Below, piece after piece: positions 3,105 through 45,683 of a DNA stretch of 64,000 nt. Numbering within the stretch: the stretch's first letter is position 1; each line of letters starts with the position of its first letter. Origin of the DNA: a virus. The notes under the pieces are model-generated. The model was not told the origin of the DNA, searched no databases, and saw nothing but the letters and a program-made list of their open reading frames with translations. The position numbers and the translations under genes were made by a program. The stretch is from IMG/VR virus record IMGVR_UViG_3300021168_000013; one strand, 5' to 3'.

Positions 3105-4607
3105 ATGAAGAATTTAGACCGTATTTTATTAGAGTATTTCACAAAAAGAGAAGATGGTGGGGCAAATTTCAATTCAAAAAGTTATGACGATTTGCAACAT
3201 TTTGAGACATTTTTGATCGAATGTGGATATATTCATAGTTTCGATAGAGCCAAATTGAACGAATTATTTGGTTCTTCCACGTTGTCTAAAACCATAAGTA
3301 CTGGTGTTGGTAAAGTTACATCGAAATTAAAGTCTTTTTGGCGTAAAATATTAGATATCGTAAAGTCTGGATATTCTCAAATAGTTAGACGATTCCATAG
3401 TGAATGCGGAAGAATTGAAAGTGATATCAAAAATTACGATTTAGGTGAAGAAATACTTATACCATTACCACGAGTTACCGAGCCAAACCTATCAGAATTC
3501 TCAGATGCAGTAAATAATGTCACATCATTACAAAGTGGGGTTGCTCCAGAAGGAGAAGCTGAGATAGGTGAAGCAAAAGAGGGTGCTACAGCATTTAAAG
3601 GATATTATAATGAATATCTTACTTGTGAATATATTTTAGCCATGGATAGTGGTAAATTGAATGAGGATTTTTCATTACTTCATGGTGTCTCTCCCGATCC
3701 AACCGTTAGACTAACTGATCCAAATAGAACTACCACACAATTTATCCGTAGCAAATCCCGTGAATATTATCAAAAATTGAAAGAAGTTTGTGGTGATGAA
3801 TTTGATGACACCAATAGAGTAGTAAATTTAGGCAGTAAACAAATGGCTGATTATCTCATTGATGCTGCTAAAAAATCAGGGGCGTTTATTTACGACATTC
3901 AAGCAGTCGGAGAAGATAAAGAAGGTGTGGCCGATATTTTGGTTAAAATGACTAGAACCGAGGGTGATTTCTCCAATGCTTATTCATTAAAAATATCAGA
4001 AGGAAAGAATATAAATTTGGCCAATAGAACATTCGGTACTCAAGTTGAACAATTATGTGGCAACGCCCAAGTCAAAGAAGAACTTAAGAAACGTTTAATG
4101 TCAGACCCAGAATATAAAAAAGCATTTGATCAAGGAAAAATATTGAATGCTGAATTACAGGCACAAAAGAGAGCTAAGAATACTAGTAAATTAGCTGATC
4201 TCAGAAAAGGAAGAGGATTGGCTAGACAAAAACTGAATTTGATTGCAGCAAAAGTCCTTTATGGATTCTTGAAAGATTTCAATGATAAGAATAAACTAGC
4301 ATTCAGTCAGAATTTACAAAAATTACTTGGTTTTTCGGATAAGGATATAGGAATTTTAACGGCGATAGTAAAGAAATCCAAAAAAGAAGGTGGTTATATG
4401 TCTGAACTATTAGCAAAAAAACCAGAATTTGATTTTTCTAATTTAAAGGTCACATATGACAACGGAGTATCTATTAAAATTATTAATGAAAAAGCAAAAC
4501 AAGTAATTGTCACAATATCTCTTAAAGAAGGTGTTGCCGCAGCAAACTGGGTAGACTTTTCATCCGTCACTCCATTCGATCAAGGATTCGTTCCATTTGA
4601 GGTATAA
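3105..4607 (+). CDS. Hypothetical protein, possible PD-(D/E)XK restriction-endonuclease-like domain
   Basis: ATG at 3105 preferred over TTG 3093. GYYNEY...ADILVK...YSLK resembles an E...D...SxK nuclease core. N-terminus resembles that of the next ORF. Confidence 0.45.
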   Translation: MKNLDRILLEYFTKREDGGANFNSKSYDDLQHFETFLIECGYIHSFDRAKLNELFGSSTLSKTISTGVGKVTSKLKSFWRKILDIVKSGYSQIVRRFHSECGRIESDIKNYDLGEEILIPLPRVTEPNLSEFSDAVNNVTSLQSGVAPEGEAEIGEAKEGATAFKGYYNEYLTCEYILAMDSGKLNEDFSLLHGVSPDPTVRLTDPNRTTTQFIRSKSREYYQKLKEVCGDEFDDTNRVVNLGSKQMADYLIDAAKKSGAFIYDIQAVGEDKEGVADILVKMTRTEGDFSNAYSLKISEGKNINLANRTFGTQVEQLCGNAQVKEELKKRLMSDPEYKKAFDQGKILNAELQAQKRAKNTSKLADLRKGRGLARQKLNLIAAKVLYGFLKDFNDKNKLAFSQNLQKLLGFSDKDIGILTAIVKKSKKEGGYMSELLAKKPEFDFSNLKVTYDNGVSIKIINEKAKQVIVTISLKEGVAAANWVDFSSVTPFDQGFVPFEV

Positions 4608-10223: not shown

Positions 10224-11603
10224 ATGAATGACAAAATTATTGACTCCTTGAAAAAATACGGTAATGAATTCCAAGTAAAATGTATCTCCGGCCTCCTAAG
10301 TGATAAATCCTTTATAGAAAGATTGAGTGATATTCTCGATCCCGAAGCTTTTGAAAGTGACGCCCATAAATGGATTGTTAAGAATATATTAACTTACTTT
10401 ATGGAATTTAAACAGATTCCGACACTTACCGCATTTAAAGTTGGATTTGAATCTATTGAAAATCCATTATTAAAAGAAGCAGTTAAAGGACAACTATTCT
10501 TGGTATATCAAAAACTTTCGGAAACTGATTTGGCGTTTGTTAAAGAACAATTTCTTGAATTTTGTAAGAACCAAAAAATTAAGGCGGCATTAATTGAAGG
10601 TGTGGAATTAATGAAATTAGGACAATACGATAAAATCAAAAAGTCTTTTGATGACGCCCTCAAAGCTGGTATGGAAAGAAATGTTGGTCATGATTACTTA
10701 AATGAAATTGACGCACGTATGAGTGTCATGGCTAGAAGCAGTGTTAAAACCAATTGGCTTGAAATTGATACTTTGTTGGACGGTGGATTAGCCAAAGGAG
10801 AATTAGGTATTATTGTTGCTCCAGCGGGGATTGGTAAGAGTTGGCTGTTAGCAAAAATTGGAGCAGAAGGTATGAGACAAGGATTGAACGTGTTACACGT
10901 CACTCTTGAGTTGAATGAAAACTATGTGGGTTTGCGTTATGATAGTTGTTTTACTGGAATAGATTTCCAAAAGATCAGAAATAACGTTGACTTGGTTAAG
11001 AACAAAATTGCCACTATTACTGGTAAACTATTCATTAAATATTTTCCAATCAAAACTGTATCCGCTAATAGTCTCAAATTACATGCCGAGAGATTACAGT
11101 TGCTTGGAACCAAAATTGATTTGATGATTGTGGATTATGCCGATATCTTGCGTCCAGCAGCTTCTGATAAGAATAGCAATAGTTATAGTGAAGCTGGCGG
11201 TATATATGAGGAATTGAGAGCAGTTGCTGGAGAACTACAAATTCCTATATGGAGTGCATCTCAAGCTAACAGAAGTGCGGCAGAGGAAGATATTGTTATG
11301 GCACATCATGCCGCTGATAGTTATAGAAAAATCATGACAGCGGACTTCGTTATGAGTTTGTCAAGAAAAACCGCAGACAAAGTAGCAAATACCGCACGAG
11401 TTCATGTAATCAAGAACAGATTTGGTGCAGATGGTATTACATTCCCTTGTAGAATGAATGCAAGTTGTGGTGATATTCAAATATTCAGTGAAGCTTCTAG
11501 AGAAGGAGCGGCTGTTTTAAATGAAATGAGTCAGGAAGAAAATATAGTCAAAAAAATGATGTTCAATAAGTATAAAGATTTGATGGAACCGACAGACGAA
11601 TGA
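10224..11603 (+). CDS. dnaB: Replicative DnaB/gp41-like helicase
   Basis: Walker A APAGIGKS, LELNE, IVDYADIL, SASQANR, KNRFG. Confidence 0.92.
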   Translation: MNDKIIDSLKKYGNEFQVKCISGLLSDKSFIERLSDILDPEAFESDAHKWIVKNILTYFMEFKQIPTLTAFKVGFESIENPLLKEAVKGQLFLVYQKLSETDLAFVKEQFLEFCKNQKIKAALIEGVELMKLGQYDKIKKSFDDALKAGMERNVGHDYLNEIDARMSVMARSSVKTNWLEIDTLLDGGLAKGELGIIVAPAGIGKSWLLAKIGAEGMRQGLNVLHVTLELNENYVGLRYDSCFTGIDFQKIRNNVDLVKNKIATITGKLFIKYFPIKTVSANSLKLHAERLQLLGTKIDLMIVDYADILRPAASDKNSNSYSEAGGIYEELRAVAGELQIPIWSASQANRSAAEEDIVMAHHAADSYRKIMTADFVMSLSRKTADKVANTARVHVIKNRFGADGITFPCRMNASCGDIQIFSEASREGAAVLNEMSQEENIVKKMMFNKYKDLMEPTDE

Positions 11604-11719
11604 TGTATAGTTTTAAAAATTCAAAAGTGATAATTTTTTTAAAAAAAGTTTCACACATTTGGTATTTTTGACATAACTAAAATATAGTTATTTCTTGCCT
11701 ACATTGGAGAAGAAAAAAT

Positions 11720-14635
11720 ATGATTATAACAGATAAATTTGCAAACAAATATAAAAATAAACAGCCTAATTGGGGATTTAATGGACTAGGATATATAGTA
11801 TACAAAAGAACTTATTCAAGATTGAAAGAAAACGGGGAAACCGAGGAATGGTATGAAACGGTACAAAGATGTATAAATGGAGCACAAGATATTGGTGCGG
11901 ATTATACACAAGAGGAAGCGGAAAAATTATATGATTTAATCTTCAATTTTAAATGTAATTTTGCTGGAAGAATGTTATGGCAACTTGGTACACCTACCGT
12001 TAAACGTTGGGGGGCCAATAGTTTACTTAACTGTCTACGAGGAACAACAAGAGTACTAACCAGACAAGGATGGAAAGAAATTCATACATTGGTTGATAAA
12101 ACAGTTGAAATTGTTACTAAAAATGGAAAATGGGTAAATGCTCCATTTAAATCTTATGGAAAACAAAATTTAATGAAAGTTGTTTTCGAAGATCGGTATG
12201 GTAATATTGAGGAAGTATACGCCACTAAAAATCACAGATGGTTTTATTTGGATAAGAATCATAATTCTATAGAAACCACAACAGAAGAATTGCAGACGGG
12301 AGTTAAAATACCAGTAATACGAGGAAAAAATTCATCAAAAGGATTAAGCCCACAAGGAATCCAACATGGTTTGGTTTTTGGTGATGGATCATGTAACGGA
12401 TATGAATCCTTCGTTGATTTGATAGATAATACTTATGATGAATGTGCTAATTATTTTAATTTGAATAGGATAAGTTGGACAAATCCCGATAATAGCAGAC
12501 ATGTTAGATATGGTGGAATGCCAAATTACTATAAATCCCTTCCGAATATCAATGAAAATAAACAATATTTGTCTGGATTCTTGGCGGGATGGATAGCCGC
12601 TGATGGAAGTGTGAACAAAAGTAATGGTAGGATTAGATTATTTAATCGTGATAAAGAAGTTTTAATGTTTGCTAAAGATGTTGCTGCTGTGTTGGGATAT
12701 AGAACATCGGAGCCATATTTAGAAAGGGATCATAATCCGTTTGATTTGGATGATGAATCTTGTGAATTATGGTCGATAACTTTTTATACATCCGATAACC
12801 CACATCATTTGATTATAAGAAAAGATCATCTATCTAAATTAAATGATTTTGATAGGGATTATAATAATTGGACAAAGGTTATAAAGGTTGAAACTACGGA
12901 TTTAAATGAAGAAGTTTTCTGTGCCGAAGTTCCCGAAACACATTCTTTTGTTATTCAAGGTAATATTTTAACAGGAAACTGTTGGGCAGTCGCTATGAGA
13001 GAACCAAAAGCCTTTTTATTCTTATTTGAGAATTTAATGCTTGGTGGTGGAGTGGGATATAGCATTCGTCGTGAAGATGTTCATGAATTACCAAAGATTA
13101 AAGTGGATGTAACAGTATCACATCAATATACAAAGGATGCCGATTTGATAGTTCCTGATAGTAGAGAAGGATGGGTTAAATTACTGGAAAATGTTTTAAA
13201 TGCGTATTATGTAACTGGCAAATCATTCTCTTATTCAACCATATTGATAAGAGGAGCAGGAGAGCCAATTCACGGTTTTGGTGGTAAGGCAAGTGGTCCA
13301 GCAATCTTGGTAGAGGGTATATCAAAAATTGGTTCTATCTTTAAATCCAGAGAGGGAAAGAAACTACGTAGTATTGATGTGCTTGATATCTGTAACATTA
13401 TTGGAAGTGTAGTCGTTGCTGGTAATGTCAGAAGAAGTGCTGAAATTGCATTAGGTGATCCCGATGATATTCTTTATCTCAGAGCAAAAAATTGGAGCAG
13501 TGGCAATGTTCCAAATTGGAGAGGTATGAGTAACAATACTATATATGCCGATGATTTTGATCATATTATGAATGAAATCTGGGAAAATGGATACATATTG
13601 GATAAAGAAACAGGAATGGCCAAAGGTGAACCTTATGGATTTTTCAATCTTCCATTATCTCAAAAGTTTGGTAGAATTAAAGATGGCCCAATTAAAGATA
13701 ATAAGATGTACCCAACAAATGTTGATAATTGTGAAATGACAAATCCCTGTGCCGAGATTAGTCTAAGCAATTATGAATGTTGTAATCTTTGTGAATTATA
13801 TCTTAATAATATAGAAAACAAGGAAGAATTGATTGACTGTGCCAAATTGTTGTATAAGACACAAAAGGCTATATCCGCACTTCCATTTATTCACGAAGAA
13901 ACCAATAAGATTGTTCATAAGAATATGAGACTTGGTTTAGGTGTCACAGGAATCTGTCAATCACTTGACAAGGTTGATTGGTTGGATGATTGTTATGTTG
14001 CATTGAGAAAACTTGACAAACAATGGAGTAAGGAAAAAGGTCATCCTGAGAGTATCAAGCTTACCACAATTAAACCTAGTGGAACATTGAGTCTATTAGG
14101 TGGAGCAACACCCGGTGTGCATCCAGCTTATAGTCAGTATTATTTTCGAACGGTTCGCATGGCAAGCAGTGATAAATTAGTACAGATTTGTAAGGATTTG
14201 GGATACCATACTGAATATTTATTGAATTTTGATGGTAGTGAGGATAGAGGCACCGTTGTAGTATATTTTCCATGCGAAACTCCATCTAATGCAATCTTGG
14301 CAAAGGATATGGATGTTATCAAACAATTGGATATGGTAAAGAAGTTACAGAACATATGGAGTGATAATGCCGTAAGTGTTACAGCATATTACAAGGAAGC
14401 CGAACTTCCTGCGTTAAAAAACTGGTTATCAGATAATTATAAGAACCATGTAAAGAGTGTAAGTTTTCTTTTGCATAAAAAACATGGATTTAAACAGGCT
14501 CCTTATCAAGAAATCGATAAAGAAACATATGATAAAGCCAAAAGTCTAGTAAAATCACTTAATAACATAAAAATTGGTGGAGGAGAAATTATTCAAGGGT
14601 TAGAATGTGAAGGTGGAGCCTGTCCTATTCGATAA
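11720..14635 (+). CDS. nrdJ: Class II (adenosylcobalamin) ribonucleotide reductase containing an intein
   Basis: YKRTYSR, LLN|CWAV, GNVRRSA, TNPCAEI, CCNLCE, TIKPSGT, C-terminal CEGGACPIR redox pair. Confidence 0.95.
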   Translation: MIITDKFANKYKNKQPNWGFNGLGYIVYKRTYSRLKENGETEEWYETVQRCINGAQDIGADYTQEEAEKLYDLIFNFKCNFAGRMLWQLGTPTVKRWGANSLLNCLRGTTRVLTRQGWKEIHTLVDKTVEIVTKNGKWVNAPFKSYGKQNLMKVVFEDRYGNIEEVYATKNHRWFYLDKNHNSIETTTEELQTGVKIPVIRGKNSSKGLSPQGIQHGLVFGDGSCNGYESFVDLIDNTYDECANYFNLNRISWTNPDNSRHVRYGGMPNYYKSLPNINENKQYLSGFLAGWIAADGSVNKSNGRIRLFNRDKEVLMFAKDVAAVLGYRTSEPYLERDHNPFDLDDESCELWSITFYTSDNPHHLIIRKDHLSKLNDFDRDYNNWTKVIKVETTDLNEEVFCAEVPETHSFVIQGNILTGNCWAVAMREPKAFLFLFENLMLGGGVGYSIRREDVHELPKIKVDVTVSHQYTKDADLIVPDSREGWVKLLENVLNAYYVTGKSFSYSTILIRGAGEPIHGFGGKASGPAILVEGISKIGSIFKSREGKKLRSIDVLDICNIIGSVVVAGNVRRSAEIALGDPDDILYLRAKNWSSGNVPNWRGMSNNTIYADDFDHIMNEIWENGYILDKETGMAKGEPYGFFNLPLSQKFGRIKDGPIKDNKMYPTNVDNCEMTNPCAEISLSNYECCNLCELYLNNIENKEELIDCAKLLYKTQKAISALPFIHEETNKIVHKNMRLGLGVTGICQSLDKVDWLDDCYVALRKLDKQWSKEKGHPESIKLTTIKPSGTLSLLGGATPGVHPAYSQYYFRTVRMASSDKLVQICKDLGYHTEYLLNFDGSEDRGTVVVYFPCETPSNAILAKDMDVIKQLDMVKKLQNIWSDNAVSVTAYYKEAELPALKNWLSDNYKNHVKSVSFLLHKKHGFKQAPYQEIDKETYDKAKSLVKSLNNIKIGGGEIIQGLECEGGACPIR
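12032..12979 (+). mobile_element. Intein with LAGLIDADG homing endonuclease (316 aa)
   Basis: Starts CLRGTTRV, block B ATKNHRW, LAGLIDADG motifs GLVFGDGS and GWIAADGS, ends HSFVIQGNILTGN followed by Cys+1. Confidence 0.93.
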
Positions 14636-40753: not shown

Positions 40754-43363
40754 ATGTATAAATCGATTTATTACGATAAACTTAAAGGTCTTTTGCATCT
40801 TTGGGATGATGAGCTTGGATATGTCTGTAGAAAATACAGAAACTATGCCTTCATGAAAAGTGAATTCGGAAAATTCCAAACACTACATGGTGAAAAAGTT
40901 GATAAGATATATGATTTTAAATATGGTGACTACAATACATACGAATCCGATCTTACGGCTGAGACAAAAATTCTTGTAGATTTATATAGGGATCAAGATG
41001 ATCCTCCAAAAAATTTAAAAACGATAATAATCGATATCGAAACAGACACCACAGGAGGAAATCCAGATGTCAACATATTCAATAAAGAGATTACGGCTTT
41101 TTCTTATTATGAGAGGATGACCAATTTATATAAGTGTTTACTTTTAGATAAAGATGGTCAAGTTGATGGATATACAAAAGATAATACGGAAGTAATTACT
41201 TTTTCCGATGAAGAATCGCTGTTGAATGGTATATTGACCGTTTTTGAACAAATACGGCCAGATATCGTAACAGGTTGGAACATTTGTTATAACGGATATT
41301 ATGGTGATGGTGGAGGATTCGACATAAGATACATTTATGGTAGAATATGTAAGATACTTGGGGTTAATCAAGCAAATCGTTTGTCTGAAATCGGAAAATG
41401 TTATGTAAAAGAGCGAGATAAAACGGTTGTTATTGCGGGTGTAAACACATTAGACTATTTGTTATTATATAAGAAGTTTCGATTTGAACCTAGACAGAAT
41501 TATACATTGGATCACATTGGCACAGTTGAATTTGGTCAAGGTAAAATTAAATACGAGGGATCATTGCATAAATTATACAAAGAAGATATAAAAAAGTTCA
41601 TTGAATATAACCTTTGTGACGTTGAGATCGTAAAAAAATTGGATGATCAGTTTAAATTCTTGGATTTGGCCGTTGGTGTAACTTCCATTGGGCATGTTCC
41701 ATTTGAATGGTTTCATATGTCATCCAGATTCATTGAAGGGGCTATTATAACATATATGCGCAGAAATGGTAACATTGTTGCCCCAAATAAACCCATTGCA
41801 ATTGATGATGAAGTAGAAGAACAAGCAATGGCTCATTATAACAAACTAATGAAAGAAAAAGGTGAGGAAGAGGAAGATGATGACGACAGTTTCGTTGGTG
41901 CGTATGTAAAAAATCCTGTTCCACAATTATATTCATGGGTTTTCTCTGTTGATATAAATTCCCTATATCCGTCCACCATTAGGACACTAAACATTAGTCC
42001 TGAAACGTATATTGGGAGAATAGCTGACTGGAGTGTGGAAAATTATGTCGGCAATAAACTCACCGAAGTAAAAATAGCTGGCGAGACTTATTCAGTAGAC
42101 GAATTTAAAAATTTCATTAATACTGAACAGATAAATGTTTCATCCATTGGTGCTATGTATGACGGAAAGAAAGCGGGAATCATACCAACAATATTGGATA
42201 TGTGGTTTACTCAGCGTATTGAGTTCCAAGACTTAATGAAAAAGTATGGCAAAGAGGGAAACAAAGAAAAAGAGGAATATTATTCTCGCCGACAACACGT
42301 TCAGAAGATTTTCTTGAATTCTGTATATGGTATCTTGGGATTAAACAGTAGCAGATTCTATAGTAAGGATAATGCCGAATCAACAACTCTTACGGGGCAG
42401 ACAATCATCAAAACTTCCGAAAAAATAGTGATTGAATACTTTAAGGAGAAATATAACAAGTATAACAAGACTATTGATAATGTTGATAACGTTGTTCAGT
42501 ATATTGATACGGACAGTTTGTATGTATCCGTTGCCGCCCTTGGTGCCTTGGAAGGTATTAAGGAAGAGGATATGAAAGAATACACCAAAAAGGTTTGTAG
42601 CGAGATTGTGGAACGATTAAATGCTTTTTATCCTACAATAACCAAGAAAATGTTTAATTCAGATAATAACAAGATCAAAATCGCCGCAGACACAATAAAT
42701 TCCACGGCATTATGGAAAAAGAAGAAAGCGTATGCTCTAAATCAAGTATATGACATGAGTAAGAATAAGGATGTCAGTAAAATGAAAGTTGTTGGATTGA
42801 GTAGCGTAAGATCAGACTTTCCACTCAAGTTTAAAACTTTCTATGAACAATTTTTGAAGGATATATTAAATAGACAAGGTTTAACTAATATAAATAAGAA
42901 GGTTCTTGAACTATGTGAGAATTTAAAGAATTGTACTATCGTGGAGTTGGCAAAGAATACATCTGTCAAGTTTTTTAGTGAGAAAAAGGGAATAAACTTC
43001 GATCCAAAGAAACGACAGAAGTTTGTTATTGAGGATGGAGCTACGGCACAATGTAAGGCAGCTTTGATGTATAATGATCTATTGGTTAAATTCAAATTGA
43101 ACACCAAGGTTGAACCAATCTACTCAGGACAGAAAATTAAGTATGTATATTTGGCTGATAATCCATATGGAATTGATGCGTTGGCTTTTAAAAACGATGG
43201 AACCGATCCAAAAGAGATAATGGACATAATCAATGAATATTGTGATAAAAACAGGATGTATACGTCTGTATTAGAGAATAAGATAGAGGATTTTTATAGA
43301 ATATTGGGTTGGCAAATGCCATCCTTGGTGGAAGCCAAAGCTAGTGAGTTTTTTGAATTTTAA
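40754..43363 (+). CDS. polB: Family B DNA polymerase (T4 gp43-like)
   Basis: Exo DIETD, GWN..FD, YNLCD; pol DINSLYPS, KIFLNSVYG, YIDTDS, KKKAY. Confidence 0.97.
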   Translation: MYKSIYYDKLKGLLHLWDDELGYVCRKYRNYAFMKSEFGKFQTLHGEKVDKIYDFKYGDYNTYESDLTAETKILVDLYRDQDDPPKNLKTIIIDIETDTTGGNPDVNIFNKEITAFSYYERMTNLYKCLLLDKDGQVDGYTKDNTEVITFSDEESLLNGILTVFEQIRPDIVTGWNICYNGYYGDGGGFDIRYIYGRICKILGVNQANRLSEIGKCYVKERDKTVVIAGVNTLDYLLLYKKFRFEPRQNYTLDHIGTVEFGQGKIKYEGSLHKLYKEDIKKFIEYNLCDVEIVKKLDDQFKFLDLAVGVTSIGHVPFEWFHMSSRFIEGAIITYMRRNGNIVAPNKPIAIDDEVEEQAMAHYNKLMKEKGEEEEDDDDSFVGAYVKNPVPQLYSWVFSVDINSLYPSTIRTLNISPETYIGRIADWSVENYVGNKLTEVKIAGETYSVDEFKNFINTEQINVSSIGAMYDGKKAGIIPTILDMWFTQRIEFQDLMKKYGKEGNKEKEEYYSRRQHVQKIFLNSVYGILGLNSSRFYSKDNAESTTLTGQTIIKTSEKIVIEYFKEKYNKYNKTIDNVDNVVQYIDTDSLYVSVAALGALEGIKEEDMKEYTKKVCSEIVERLNAFYPTITKKMFNSDNNKIKIAADTINSTALWKKKKAYALNQVYDMSKNKDVSKMKVVGLSSVRSDFPLKFKTFYEQFLKDILNRQGLTNINKKVLELCENLKNCTIVELAKNTSVKFFSEKKGINFDPKKRQKFVIEDGATAQCKAALMYNDLLVKFKLNTKVEPIYSGQKIKYVYLADNPYGIDALAFKNDGTDPKEIMDIINEYCDKNRMYTSVLENKIEDFYRILGWQMPSLVEAKASEFFEF

Positions 43364-43366
43364 AAT

Positions 43367-43630
43367 ATGAGAAAAGGAACATACATTTGTAGAAAACATA
43401 ACAAGACTGCTAGGGGAGGTTTACATACACCACTTTGTCCCATATGTCGAGAGGAAATGGAAGGATTGGGGTTTAAGCAACGTATTGGACATTGTGGGCA
43501 GTTCGATAAGGTTGAGAGAAAAACACGCAATCTTGATGGACAAAGAGAAGTTATGTCAAGCAGAGTAAGAAAGCTTAAACGGCAGGAATTAATGGAGCAA
43601 TTTAAGAAAAGACAGAATTTTAGTATATAA
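43367..43630 (+). CDS. Small basic Zn-finger-like protein
   Basis: CxxH...CPIC; 87 aa immediately after polB. Confidence 0.5.
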   Translation: MRKGTYICRKHNKTARGGLHTPLCPICREEMEGLGFKQRIGHCGQFDKVERKTRNLDGQREVMSSRVRKLKRQELMEQFKKRQNFSI

Positions 43631-43634
43631 TAAC

Positions 43635-43662
43635 TAGACAATCATATAAAGTGTGTTATACT
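43635..43662 (+). promoter_or_regulatory. sigma70-type promoter for histone-clamp unit
   Basis: TAGACA-16-TATACT with TGn; AAGGA SD-like sequence 9 nt before ATG 43703. Confidence 0.65.
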
Positions 43663-43702
43663 AATTGAGTATTAGACAGTTATAAACTAAGGAAACTAAA
43701 AT

Positions 43703-43888
43703 ATGGAAACAAACTTAATAAATCGTAGTGCAGTAAAGAAGTTGGCATTAAAATATGCCACGGAAGCAAATAAACCCCAACTAACTCGTGTCAGTGCTGA
43801 ATTTGCTGTTAGAGCCAACGCCGCATTGAATGCATGGATTCGTAATGAAGTAAATGGTCACCCGACTGACGGTAAGACCATTAGGTAA
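43703..43888 (+). CDS. Histone-fold-like protein (bacterial/phage histone type)
   Basis: LINRSAVKKLA...RVSAEF...AAL..WI...DGKTI aligns by eye with short bacterial histones (alpha1, L1 RVS, alpha2, L2 KT); alpha3 absent. Confidence 0.65.
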   Translation: METNLINRSAVKKLALKYATEANKPQLTRVSAEFAVRANAALNAWIRNEVNGHPTDGKTIR

Positions 43889-43889
43889 T

Positions 43890-44633
43890 ATGAATAAAGT
43901 GTTGTTAGACACATTTATCAAAAAATACACTCTCGGTGGAAACGTTGAAAGTGTAAAAATGGTTGTTGATGATGTTGGTAAGACATTAAAGACATCAGCG
44001 ATTACCGATGACAAATCGGTATTAATAAATGTAGCATTGTCTGACTTTACAGCGACAAACTCCATATTATTTGGTGTATATAACACAACACAGCTAAAAC
44101 AGATGGTAAGTGTGTTGGGTGATGAAATTAATATTAGACCAAATATTAATGCCACCAATAATAAAGTAACGTCGTTGGTTTTCTATGACGATTCTACCGA
44201 AATCCAATATGTAACGGCGGATTTGGATGTTATTCCCTCCGCTCCAAACATTAAAAAAATCCCACAGTTCAATCTTGAGATTGATTTTAAAGAATCGTTT
44301 ATTACCAAGTTCATTAGAGCTAAAAATGCTTTGAGTGATATCGATAACTTCACGTTATTGATGAATAAGAAGAATAAATTAGAATTGGTGATTGGACATA
44401 GCAAACTTAACAGAAATCGAATAACATTGGATGTTATCACGAAGGTCGGACTAAATACGGTGGCTAAACCTATCAGTTTTAGTGCTAAATACTTAAAAGA
44501 AATATTTAACAGTAATAATGATTGCGATGATGCTGTATTGAAGGTTAGTGATGATGGATTAGCGTTCATATCATTTACCAAGGATAATTTTACATCAAGT
44601 TATTATTTGGTGGAAATTAAAAATGTTGACTAA
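43890..44633 (+). CDS. Sliding clamp (gp45/PCNA-like)
   Basis: About 247 aa; FIKKYTLGGNVESV, FGVYNTTQL, SFSAKYLKEI, SSYYLV; upstream of the clamp loader. Confidence 0.8.
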   Translation: MNKVLLDTFIKKYTLGGNVESVKMVVDDVGKTLKTSAITDDKSVLINVALSDFTATNSILFGVYNTTQLKQMVSVLGDEINIRPNINATNNKVTSLVFYDDSTEIQYVTADLDVIPSAPNIKKIPQFNLEIDFKESFITKFIRAKNALSDIDNFTLLMNKKNKLELVIGHSKLNRNRITLDVITKVGLNTVAKPISFSAKYLKEIFNSNNDCDDAVLKVSDDGLAFISFTKDNFTSSYYLVEIKNVD

Positions 44634-44670
44634 CTGGAGAAAAAGCAAAACCTACAAAATATTCAACATT

Positions 44671-44698
44671 CCCCGTATGCTGTTCATACGGGGTTTTT
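44671..44698 (+). terminator. Intrinsic terminator
   Basis: CCCCGTATG-CTGTT-CATACGGGG followed by TTTTT. Confidence 0.85.
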
Positions 44699-44706
44699 AT
44701 TTAGTA

Positions 44707-44741: not shown

Positions 44742-45683
44742 ATGAACGATTTTATCGAATTTGAAACAGTACCAGAGAAAGAACATTTTATATTGGCCGA
44801 AAAATATCGCCCAACAAAAATTGAAGATTATATTGGTAATGATCAGTTTAAAAATGAATTGAAACGCATTTTGGAGACGGGTCAATTACCACATTTGATG
44901 TTACACGGCAGTTCTCCCGGAACAGGTAAGACTTCAGCGGCTAAATTGATAGTATCAAATATAAAATGTGATCATTTATATATTAATGCATCGGACACCA
45001 ACAGCGTGGATGATATTAGACTTAAAGTTAAGTCGTTTGCATCTACTATAGGATTCAGTGATCTTAAAGTTATCATTTTAGACGAAAGTGATTTCTTAAC
45101 GCCGCAAGCACAGGGAGCATTGCGTAATATCATCGAAACGTTCAGTGCCACCACCAGATTCATCTTTACATGTAACTATCTTGAAAAAATTACATCACCG
45201 ATCCTATCTCGATGCCAAGTATTTGAAATTATACCCCCAAGTAAGAAAGAAATCGCTGTACACATCAAAAATATTCTAGAAAAGGAAACTATCAAGTTCG
45301 TGCCAGAAGATTTGGGTTATATAGTTAACACTTACTATCCAGATATTAGAAAGATGCTTAATTTTGCACAACAGAGCACAGTAAACAAAGTATTGACTAT
45401 ATACAAGAAAGATAATGTTGTATCCGATTTAAAAAACAAAATCATAGAGTTGATTAAGAAGTGTGCCTTTATGGAGATTAGACAACTCATAGCTGATAAT
45501 AATGTTAGATGCTATGAAGAGCTATATCAATGTTTATATGATAAAGTGGGAGAATATGCCCCGAAGAATCCAGCTATTGTTATATTAATAATAGCTGAAT
45601 ATATGTATCAAAGCAATTTGGTAGTTAACAAGGAAATAACGTTCGCTGCGTGTATAGCAAAGATTATAGAAGAATTGAAATAA
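44742..45683 (+). CDS. Clamp loader large subunit (gp44/RFC)
   Basis: EKYRP, PHLMLHGSSPGTGKT, INASD, ILDESDFL, SRC, PDIRK. Confidence 0.95.
   Translation: MNDFIEFETVPEKEHFILAEKYRPTKIEDYIGNDQFKNELKRILETGQLPHLMLHGSSPGTGKTSAAKLIVSNIKCDHLYINASDTNSVDDIRLKVKSFASTIGFSDLKVIILDESDFLTPQAQGALRNIIETFSATTRFIFTCNYLEKITSPILSRCQVFEIIPPSKKEIAVHIKNILEKETIKFVPEDLGYIVNTYYPDIRKMLNFAQQSTVNKVLTIYKKDNVVSDLKNKIIELIKKCAFMEIRQLIADNNVRCYEELYQCLYDKVGEYAPKNPAIVILIIAEYMYQSNLVVNKEITFAACIAKIIEELK

Follow-up and report, generated by a model that had tools for sequence, protein, structure and literature searches.

Analysis of a 64,000-nucleotide stretch of viral DNA (IMG/VR record IMGVR_UViG_3300021168_000013; hereafter the window) led us to a gene for a 61-residue protein, P0001, which appears to be a minimal histone. 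Sequence comparison and modelling support a fold made of helix α1, loop L1, helix α2 and loop L2, with neither the third helix (α3) nor the arginine-aspartate (R-D) clamp; the models indicate that the protein most likely forms a symmetric handshake homodimer. It is probably a basic, non-specific binder of duplex DNA with an architectural role, made together with the sliding clamp encoded by the adjacent gene. The window, with a G+C content of 33%, is part of a large, uncultured tailed phage, and the gene occurs on a 183-kb contig. The reality of the gene, its fold, its homologies, the predicted dimer and the conservation of the gene cassette were all computed here, by means of orthologues, a family profile, AlphaFold2 (AF2), a dimer prediction and substitution rates.

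The open reading frame (ORF) occupies positions 43703-43888 on the plus strand, from an ATG at 43703 to a TAA stop codon at 43886-43888, and is identical to the one quoted in an initial annotation made by reading the letters of the window. Four orthologues, 61 to 62 residues long and 62-77% identical to the window protein, were found in metagenomes. Comparison of the window gene with three of them by the Nei-Gojobori method gave ratios of nonsynonymous to synonymous substitution (dN/dS) of 0.06 to 0.23, with synonymous sites near saturation. Thus, the ORF is a real gene under purifying selection, and more than a chance reading frame. Its product has an isoelectric point (pI) of 10.3 and a net charge of +5. 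A hidden Markov model search of all six-frame ORFs in the window detected no further member of the family, and a tblastn search of 50,697 phage records with the 61-residue protein gave zero matches.

An exhaustive profile search of 1.84 billion representative sequences returned 285 family representatives (at 50% identity) with E ≤ 1e-3, most of them 58 to 64 residues long. The family consensus reads LINRsaVKkxAL...FTRVSxxF...HPSxGKT[IL]x. All 79 members that were aligned are basic, with a median pI of 10.6 and net charges ranging from +2 to +10. Conservation in this alignment is highest at N7, L16, R29, V30, P54, G57 and T59 (at least 90% for R29, V30, G57 and T59) and concentrates in L1 and L2. 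The window protein and nearly all singlets of the family end in G-K-T-[IL]-x, two residues past the L2 threonine; their chains therefore have no α3, and no aspartate with which to form an R-D clamp. Searches of Pfam, NCBIfam and PHROGs with the 61-residue protein and the 79 members produced no meaningful match. All 13 distinct family contigs that were inspected look like phage.

The family also includes other architectures. P0012, P0041 and P0047 are true doublets; P0138 and P0151 carry a duplicated α2-L2 segment; P0074 is a singlet extended by a C-terminal helix, as in the published "phage histone" layout; P0032 is fused to a zinc ribbon, and P0044 to a WLM metalloprotease domain (Pfam, 1.4e-18). 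Proteases of the WLM/Wss1 type are DNA-dependent and act on DNA-bound substrates, and the WLM fusion thus fits a DNA-binding role for the histone module.

The evidence for the fold came first from the family profile. Compared with the sequences of the Protein Data Bank (PDB), the profile of 79 members gave a single significant match, to chain A of entry 9F2C (E 5.6e-6, residues 7-58). This is HTkC, a face-to-face (FtF) α3-truncated histone of Thermococcus kodakarensis (PMC11390915). The alignment leaves a six-residue gap in L1, corresponding to an L1 insertion in the phage protein. The next matches of the profile were to archaeal histone A, at the RVSA motif (E 0.47). A profile made from five close orthologues found nothing in the PDB. 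Supplied with the deep alignment of 79 sequences, AF2 produced a model with a mean predicted local distance difference test (pLDDT) score of 93.1, in which α1 spans residues 8-21, L1 residues 22-31, α2 residues 32-52 and the L2 tail the nine residues from 53 to 61; supplied with the shallow alignment of five orthologues, it produced a continuous helix with a score of 67.7. When the model was searched against the PDB with Foldseek, 42 of the 43 matches were histone-fold chains, the exception being the last, with E values that all exceed 1, which is no surprise for a two-helix protein of 61 residues, and were used for ranking only. VIA-align gave Z scores of 5.4 for HTkC (root-mean-square deviation, rmsd, 1.8 Å over 52 residues), 5.0 for HLp and 4.7 for HBb. 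In the BFVD collection, where no match fell below an E value of 1, the best viral match was A0A516LIY4 (E 1.9, TMq 0.66), which is a "Phage histone" entry in the supplement of Schwab et al. (PMC11390915).

Prediction of a homodimer gave an ipSAE score of 0.89, compared with 0.00 for the best of three controls. This is a pass by a mark that, among solved structures, 20 of 30 homo-pairs and one of 23 single chains reached. Three runs agreed in at least 98% of contacts, with a partner pLDDT of at least 92. The predicted contacts are of the handshake type: residue 42 meets its counterpart in the middle of α2, residue 46 contacts residues 11, 14 and 15, and residue 50 contacts residues 15, 18 and 19 of the partner's α1. 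Both L1 (26-31) and L2 (57-61) fall within the predicted interface.

Together, these results bear out much of what the initial annotation had read from the sequence. It had described a histone fold devoid of α3 and of the R-D clamp, and the HTkC match (E 5.6e-6), the pLDDT of 93 and top PDB matches consisting entirely of histones agree with this description. The insertion that it had placed in L1 amounts to six residues relative to HTkC, and the RVS of L1 and GKT of L2 that it had singled out are among the most conserved positions of the 79-member alignment. A handshake dimer, which it had named beforehand as the test of the idea, is what the prediction returned (ipSAE 0.89 versus 0.00). Its by-eye alignment to Bd0055 of Bdellovibrio fared less evenly: HBb does match in structure (Z 4.7, 24-31% identity), but by sequence HTkC alone gives a significant link.

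The gene lies directly upstream of the clamp gene in seven lineages, namely the window, L001, L002, L003/L004, L005-L007, L010/L011 and L014, whose proteins are 53-77% identical to that of the window. The two genes are separated by 1 to 11 nt or by one conserved basic ORF of about 59 residues. What lies upstream varies with the lineage: a zinc ribbon, a 132-residue, a 68-residue or a 325-residue ORF, a GNAT acetyltransferase, an AAA_28 gene or a TnpB element. Promoter, histone gene, clamp gene and terminator behave as one cassette across these lineages with different flanks. Four distant family members, on phage-like contigs, are found beside a DNA ligase, a single-stranded DNA-binding protein (SSB), an ERF recombinase or a helicase/PD-(D/E)XK pair, none of them beside a clamp. 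Since members outside the clade adjoin ligase, SSB, ERF or helicase genes, the link to the clamp is specific to this phage lineage.

Sequence signals suggest that the two genes form one unit running from promoter to terminator and set apart from the clamp-loader gene. A consensus scan of the plus strand identified a predicted sigma70-like promoter with an extended −10 motif at 43635-43662 (TAGACA-16 nt-TGtTATACT, preceded by ATAATAAC), which scores 10 of 12 consensus matches plus the TG. A block of the form ATAATAAC-TAGACA-N14-16-TGTGgTATAGT precedes the orthologous gene in L001, L002, L003, L005 and L014 despite their differing upstream genes, and the promoter block is kept in six of the seven lineages. 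A Shine-Dalgarno-like AAGGA was read at 43689-43693, 9 nt before the ATG; because relatives show GAAAGG at variable distances, this assignment is weakly supported. The clamp gene starts with an ATG at 43890, 1 nt after the stop codon of the histone gene (TAA-T-ATG). Between the clamp stop codon and the terminator, at 44642-44656 (plus strand), lies the 15-nt motif AAAGCAAAACCTACA, which occurs once in the window and is conserved at the same place in L001, L002, L003, L005 and L010; it may be a regulatory or processing element of the 3′ untranslated region. A putative intrinsic terminator at 44671-44699 (plus strand), with a 9-bp stem containing six GC pairs, a 5-nt loop and a T run, would close the unit before the clamp-loader gene. 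In all six relatives examined, the clamp gene is likewise followed by a GC-rich hairpin and a T run.

The downstream gene (43890-44633, plus strand) encodes P0002, a protein of 247 residues whose identification as a gp45-type sliding clamp is supported by profile comparison and synteny. In searches of Pfam, PHROGs and PDB sequences, P0002 matched only phrog_12062, a group of "unknown function", and neither the protein alone nor its family profile matched anything in PDB sequences or Pfam. A profile of 17 P0002 relatives (A4) was aligned by hhalign with a profile of seven annotated gp45 clamps (A5: T4, Aeromonas phages 25 and CC2, pEJ01, S-CAM7, phiN3 and EniLVp02), with a probability of 93.4% and an E value of 2.4e-7 over 154 co-linear columns (39-204 versus 33-190). 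Against T4 gp45 alone the A4 profile gave a weak match (E 0.014), and the relationship was convincing only with a profile on both sides. Weaker observations agree with the A4-A5 match: two of the 17 relatives match phrog_947, annotated as "DNA polymerase processivity factor" (0.006); among named Atlas clusters, gp45 and PCNA come nearest (0.94); and Microcystis phage Mel-JY01, which is the closest phage in culture and has a polB that is 35% identical, also carries the P0002 gene between polB and the clamp loader. In the window, the family B DNA polymerase gene polB occupies 40754-43363, upstream of the histone gene (Pfam DNA_pol_B, 5e-33), and an RFC/gp44-type clamp-loader gene occupies 44742-45683, downstream of the clamp gene (phrog_168, E 6e-74). 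The P0002 family is itself widespread in phages, with 708 relatives, yet it is annotated nowhere (phrog_12062 is "unknown" and there is no Pfam match), which constitutes an annotation gap.

The genetic setting described in the initial annotation was largely recovered by this analysis. The neighbour that it had assumed to be a sliding clamp is one according to the profile comparison (93.4%, E 2.4e-7), and the 1-nt spacing and the position between polB (5e-33) and the clamp loader (6e-74) are as it had given them. A promoter belonging to the gene itself (43635-43662) and a unit shared with the clamp gene were likewise recovered, the latter as a promoter-to-terminator arrangement conserved in seven lineages. 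Of the ribosome-binding site that it had called strong, the AAGGA at 43689-43693 is present and the strength is in doubt, given the variable GAAAGG of the relatives. The synteny with clamp genes that it had proposed as a check holds in the seven lineages and breaks down in more distant phages with a related clamp and among the other family members.

Several features in and around the cassette were noted in passing. Between polB and the promoter of the cassette there is an 87-residue zinc-ribbon ORF (43367-43630) with two CxxC-like pairs, which the initial annotation had left out; it has no match in Pfam or PHROG, and its position is taken by unrelated small ORFs in the relatives. The basic ORF of about 59 residues (MGK.SK...) separates histone and clamp genes in three lineages (L005 2689-2895, L006 2529-2708, L010 3820-3999 and L014 about 4204-4431); it has no Pfam match and is absent from the window. 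A GNAT acetyltransferase of 425-447 residues is encoded immediately upstream of the histone-fold gene in L005-L007 (1178-2455) and on the P0010 contig (JGI 3300050339). The histone-fold proteins that it adjoins belong to two distinct lineages, 71% and 49% identical to the window protein, and the juxtaposition of an acetyltransferase and a lysine-rich histone fold is a noteworthy pairing; the acetyltransferase gene is absent from the window. Elements of the IS605/TnpB type (Cas12f1-like_TNB) lie on opposite sides of the cassette in L010 (2048-3262) and L011 (4908-6113), whose contigs are otherwise near-identical. In the closest relative, L001, a SNF2-family helicase (11495-12186) is encoded about 5 kb downstream of the histone gene. 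An association between histones and SNF2 has been described in giant viruses (Liu et al. 2025, PMC13681535).

A number of points weigh against the interpretation of P0001 as a DNA-binding histone produced with the clamp. Histone dimers are well represented among solved structures, and the success of the dimer prediction may therefore reflect the model's memory of them; it is a likeness and no independent proof. None of the 79 members is recognised by the histone models of Pfam or NCBIfam. As the Foldseek E values are all above 1 and Z scores around 5 are modest for a short helical protein, the structural matches are unconvincing by themselves, and the case is carried mainly by the HMMER match to HTkC. 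In HMfB, HBb and HLp the R-D clamp stabilises L2, and the loss of both α3 and this clamp could change canonical DNA binding or do away with it. Among histone-fold families there are some, DUF1931 for example, that do not bind DNA (PMC11390915). The argument for co-transcription of the histone and clamp genes consists entirely of sequence signals. Finally, phages with a related clamp (L012/L013, Mel-JY01 and the 484-kb LR756508) do not carry the histone gene; hence, this gene is not essential to clamp function.

The last point also bears on an alternative in which the dimer is a replisome accessory, binding the clamp or the B-family polymerase in addition to duplex DNA and acting as a processivity or tethering factor or being deposited on new DNA. 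Dpb3-Dpb4, the histone-fold subunits of eukaryotic DNA polymerase epsilon, would be the functional analogue. The retention of the histone-clamp cassette in seven lineages with differing flanks, and its location between polB and the clamp loader, speak for such a role, but gene neighbourhood is the sole link: family members outside the clade are not beside clamps, phages with a related clamp lack the histone gene, and no clamp-binding motif is evident in the nine-residue tail. We consider this alternative unlikely. If the dimer were a dedicated replisome partner, co-inherited and co-expressed with the clamp, binding clamp or polymerase and laid on new DNA, which seems improbable to us, it would be the phage equivalent of chromatin assembly coupled to replication, or of Dpb3-Dpb4.

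Also improbable is a role as a weapon against the host or as a shield, whereby the basic dimer would disorganise or silence the host nucleoid, or guard phage DNA from restriction or CRISPR nucleases. The promoter is of the host type, so expression is probably early; one of the distant family members is encoded some 1.4 kb upstream of an AcrVA2-like gene; and heterologous HLp and HMfB decondense the Escherichia coli nucleoid, while HLp protects DNA from micrococcal nuclease (PMC12701072). Nothing specific favours this role, however: the gene has no defence or anti-defence neighbours, either in the window or in close relatives, and a non-specific binder could not tell host from phage DNA without some further feature. 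Loading with the replisome, protection of nascent DNA from nucleases and antagonism of host nucleoid proteins had been put forward in the initial annotation, and our analysis produced no supporting evidence for any of these proposals.

NF-Y is a eukaryotic histone-fold transcription regulator, and gene order and analogies of this kind are all that supports the three alternatives considered here. That P0001 is a transcription factor, autoregulating the cassette or coupling the clamp to late transcription, is very unlikely. In its favour, the gene immediately before gene 45 in T4 is rpbA, whose small product binds RNA polymerase; the T4 record calls gp45 a mobile enhancer of late transcription; and the cassette's conserved promoter and 3′ motif might serve as binding sites. 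Against it, hhalign shows T4 gp45.2 to be unrelated (probability 0.2%), family members occur widely in phages in clamp-free contexts, and known small α3 histones bind DNA without sequence specificity (PMC12701072).

We thus favour an architectural DNA-binding protein and postulate that it works as follows. The two α2 helices would cross at residue 42, with each α1 packed on the partner's α2 and each L1 (T-R-V-S) paired with the partner's L2 (G-K-T). The paired L1-L2 loops, together with the α1 lysines K12 and K13, would touch the backbone of the DNA, as happens in the histones of archaea and bacteria; in HLp, L1 and L2 are the DNA-contacting loops (PMC12701072). Because the dimer is basic (pI 10.3), it is proposed to bind double-stranded DNA without sequence specificity, bending or coating it as HBb or HLp do. 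The gene's own host-type promoter would give rise to one short mRNA shared with the gp45-type clamp, and from this sharing it is proposed that the histone is made at the onset of replication. There, it would act as an architectural protein on phage DNA during replication, recombination or transcription. What we infer from these features is that the protein binds DNA, when it is expressed and what biological role it plays.

Two surveys have catalogued phage histone folds of this type, none of which has been characterised experimentally, and the gene described here offers a clean test case. With 61 residues and apparently no α3, the protein would be the smallest conceivable histone fold; its family is large and has escaped current annotation libraries entirely; and the conserved two-gene unit with a replication clamp is an unusually explicit hint at function. 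Knowledge of its effect on DNA, and of whether it contacts the replisome, would show how far the histone fold can shrink and why phages keep it, and would allow hundreds of "hypothetical" phage early genes, as well as the unannotated clamp family phrog_12062, to be named. We regard this as a well-supported and experimentally attractive case, although one that will not surprise specialists.

Among known systems, a genetic parallel is the gene 45 region of phage T4, with the order 45.2-rpbA-45-44-62-regA-43. There too, small accessory genes precede the clamp gene, the genes for clamp, clamp loader and polB are clustered, and its clamp, gp45, is a homologue of the one identified here. Unlike the window, the T4 locus has no histone-fold gene, and its gene order relative to polB is reversed; in the window, a putative terminator parts clamp from clamp loader. 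The 62-residue gp45.2, encoded upstream of rpbA-45, was considered as a counterpart of P0001 and rejected (hhalign probability 0.2%).

The best structural matches, and the only ones accompanied by a significant sequence match, in the case of HTkC, are HTkC and HLp of Leptospira perolatii (PDB 9F2C and 9QT0-2; PMC11390915, PMC12701072), both face-to-face α3-truncated histones (Z 5.4 and 5.0, rmsd 1.8-2.0 Å over 51-52 residues). P0001 shares with them a size of 57-63 residues, a short α2, an L1 of the RVS type and, by prediction, the handshake dimer. It differs in being encoded by a phage and not by a cell, in an L1 that is six residues longer, and in lacking both the α3 of 3-4 residues and the RxTxxxxD motif of the R-D clamp. 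The α3-truncated histones, comprising FtF and bacterial dimer types, are defined by precisely this short α3 together with RxTxxxxD (PMC11390915). P0001 has neither feature, while its 21-residue α2 fits the shortened α2 of the group. Like HBb (Bd0055) of Bdellovibrio bacteriovorus, a "bacterial dimer" (PDB 8FVX, 9F0E), P0001 is a small, basic protein with a putative histone fold and a predicted dimer, and the DNA-bending HBb dimer provides the best working model for its function. HBb, in contrast, keeps RKTxxxD and a short α3, gives no significant sequence match, and is an essential cellular chromatin protein, whereas the phage gene is accessory.

The remaining comparison is with histone folds already reported from phages. 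"Phage histones" were defined among the α3 histones by Schwab et al. (2024, PMC11390915), and 289 non-redundant histone-fold proteins were subsequently listed in Caudoviricetes by Liu et al. (2025, PMC13681535), with a C-terminal helix (VTTHFP), without one (VHHHFP), or as Bd0055-like dimers. Neither study includes a functional test of these proteins or reports a link to a sliding clamp (PMC11390915, PMC13681535). P0001 resembles the "phage histones", VTTHFP and VHHHFP in having an α3-type fold without RxTxxxD and a conserved arginine near positions 29-30. As opposed to the "phage histones" and VTTHFP, its bare fold of 61 residues ends at L2 and carries no C-terminal tetramerisation helix. VHHHFP, whose α3 histone fold is followed by a short flexible tail in place of a C-terminal helix (PMC13681535), likewise lack a long helix at this end; the architecture of P0001 fits this description, and it is by description only that the two families were compared. 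Phage α3-type histone-fold proteins having thus been catalogued already (PMC11390915, PMC13681535), the initial annotation over-rated the novelty of the protein. Against the background of these earlier predictions of phage mini-histones, three things are new here: α3 appears to be lost completely, the unannotated family is large, and the cassette with the clamp is conserved.

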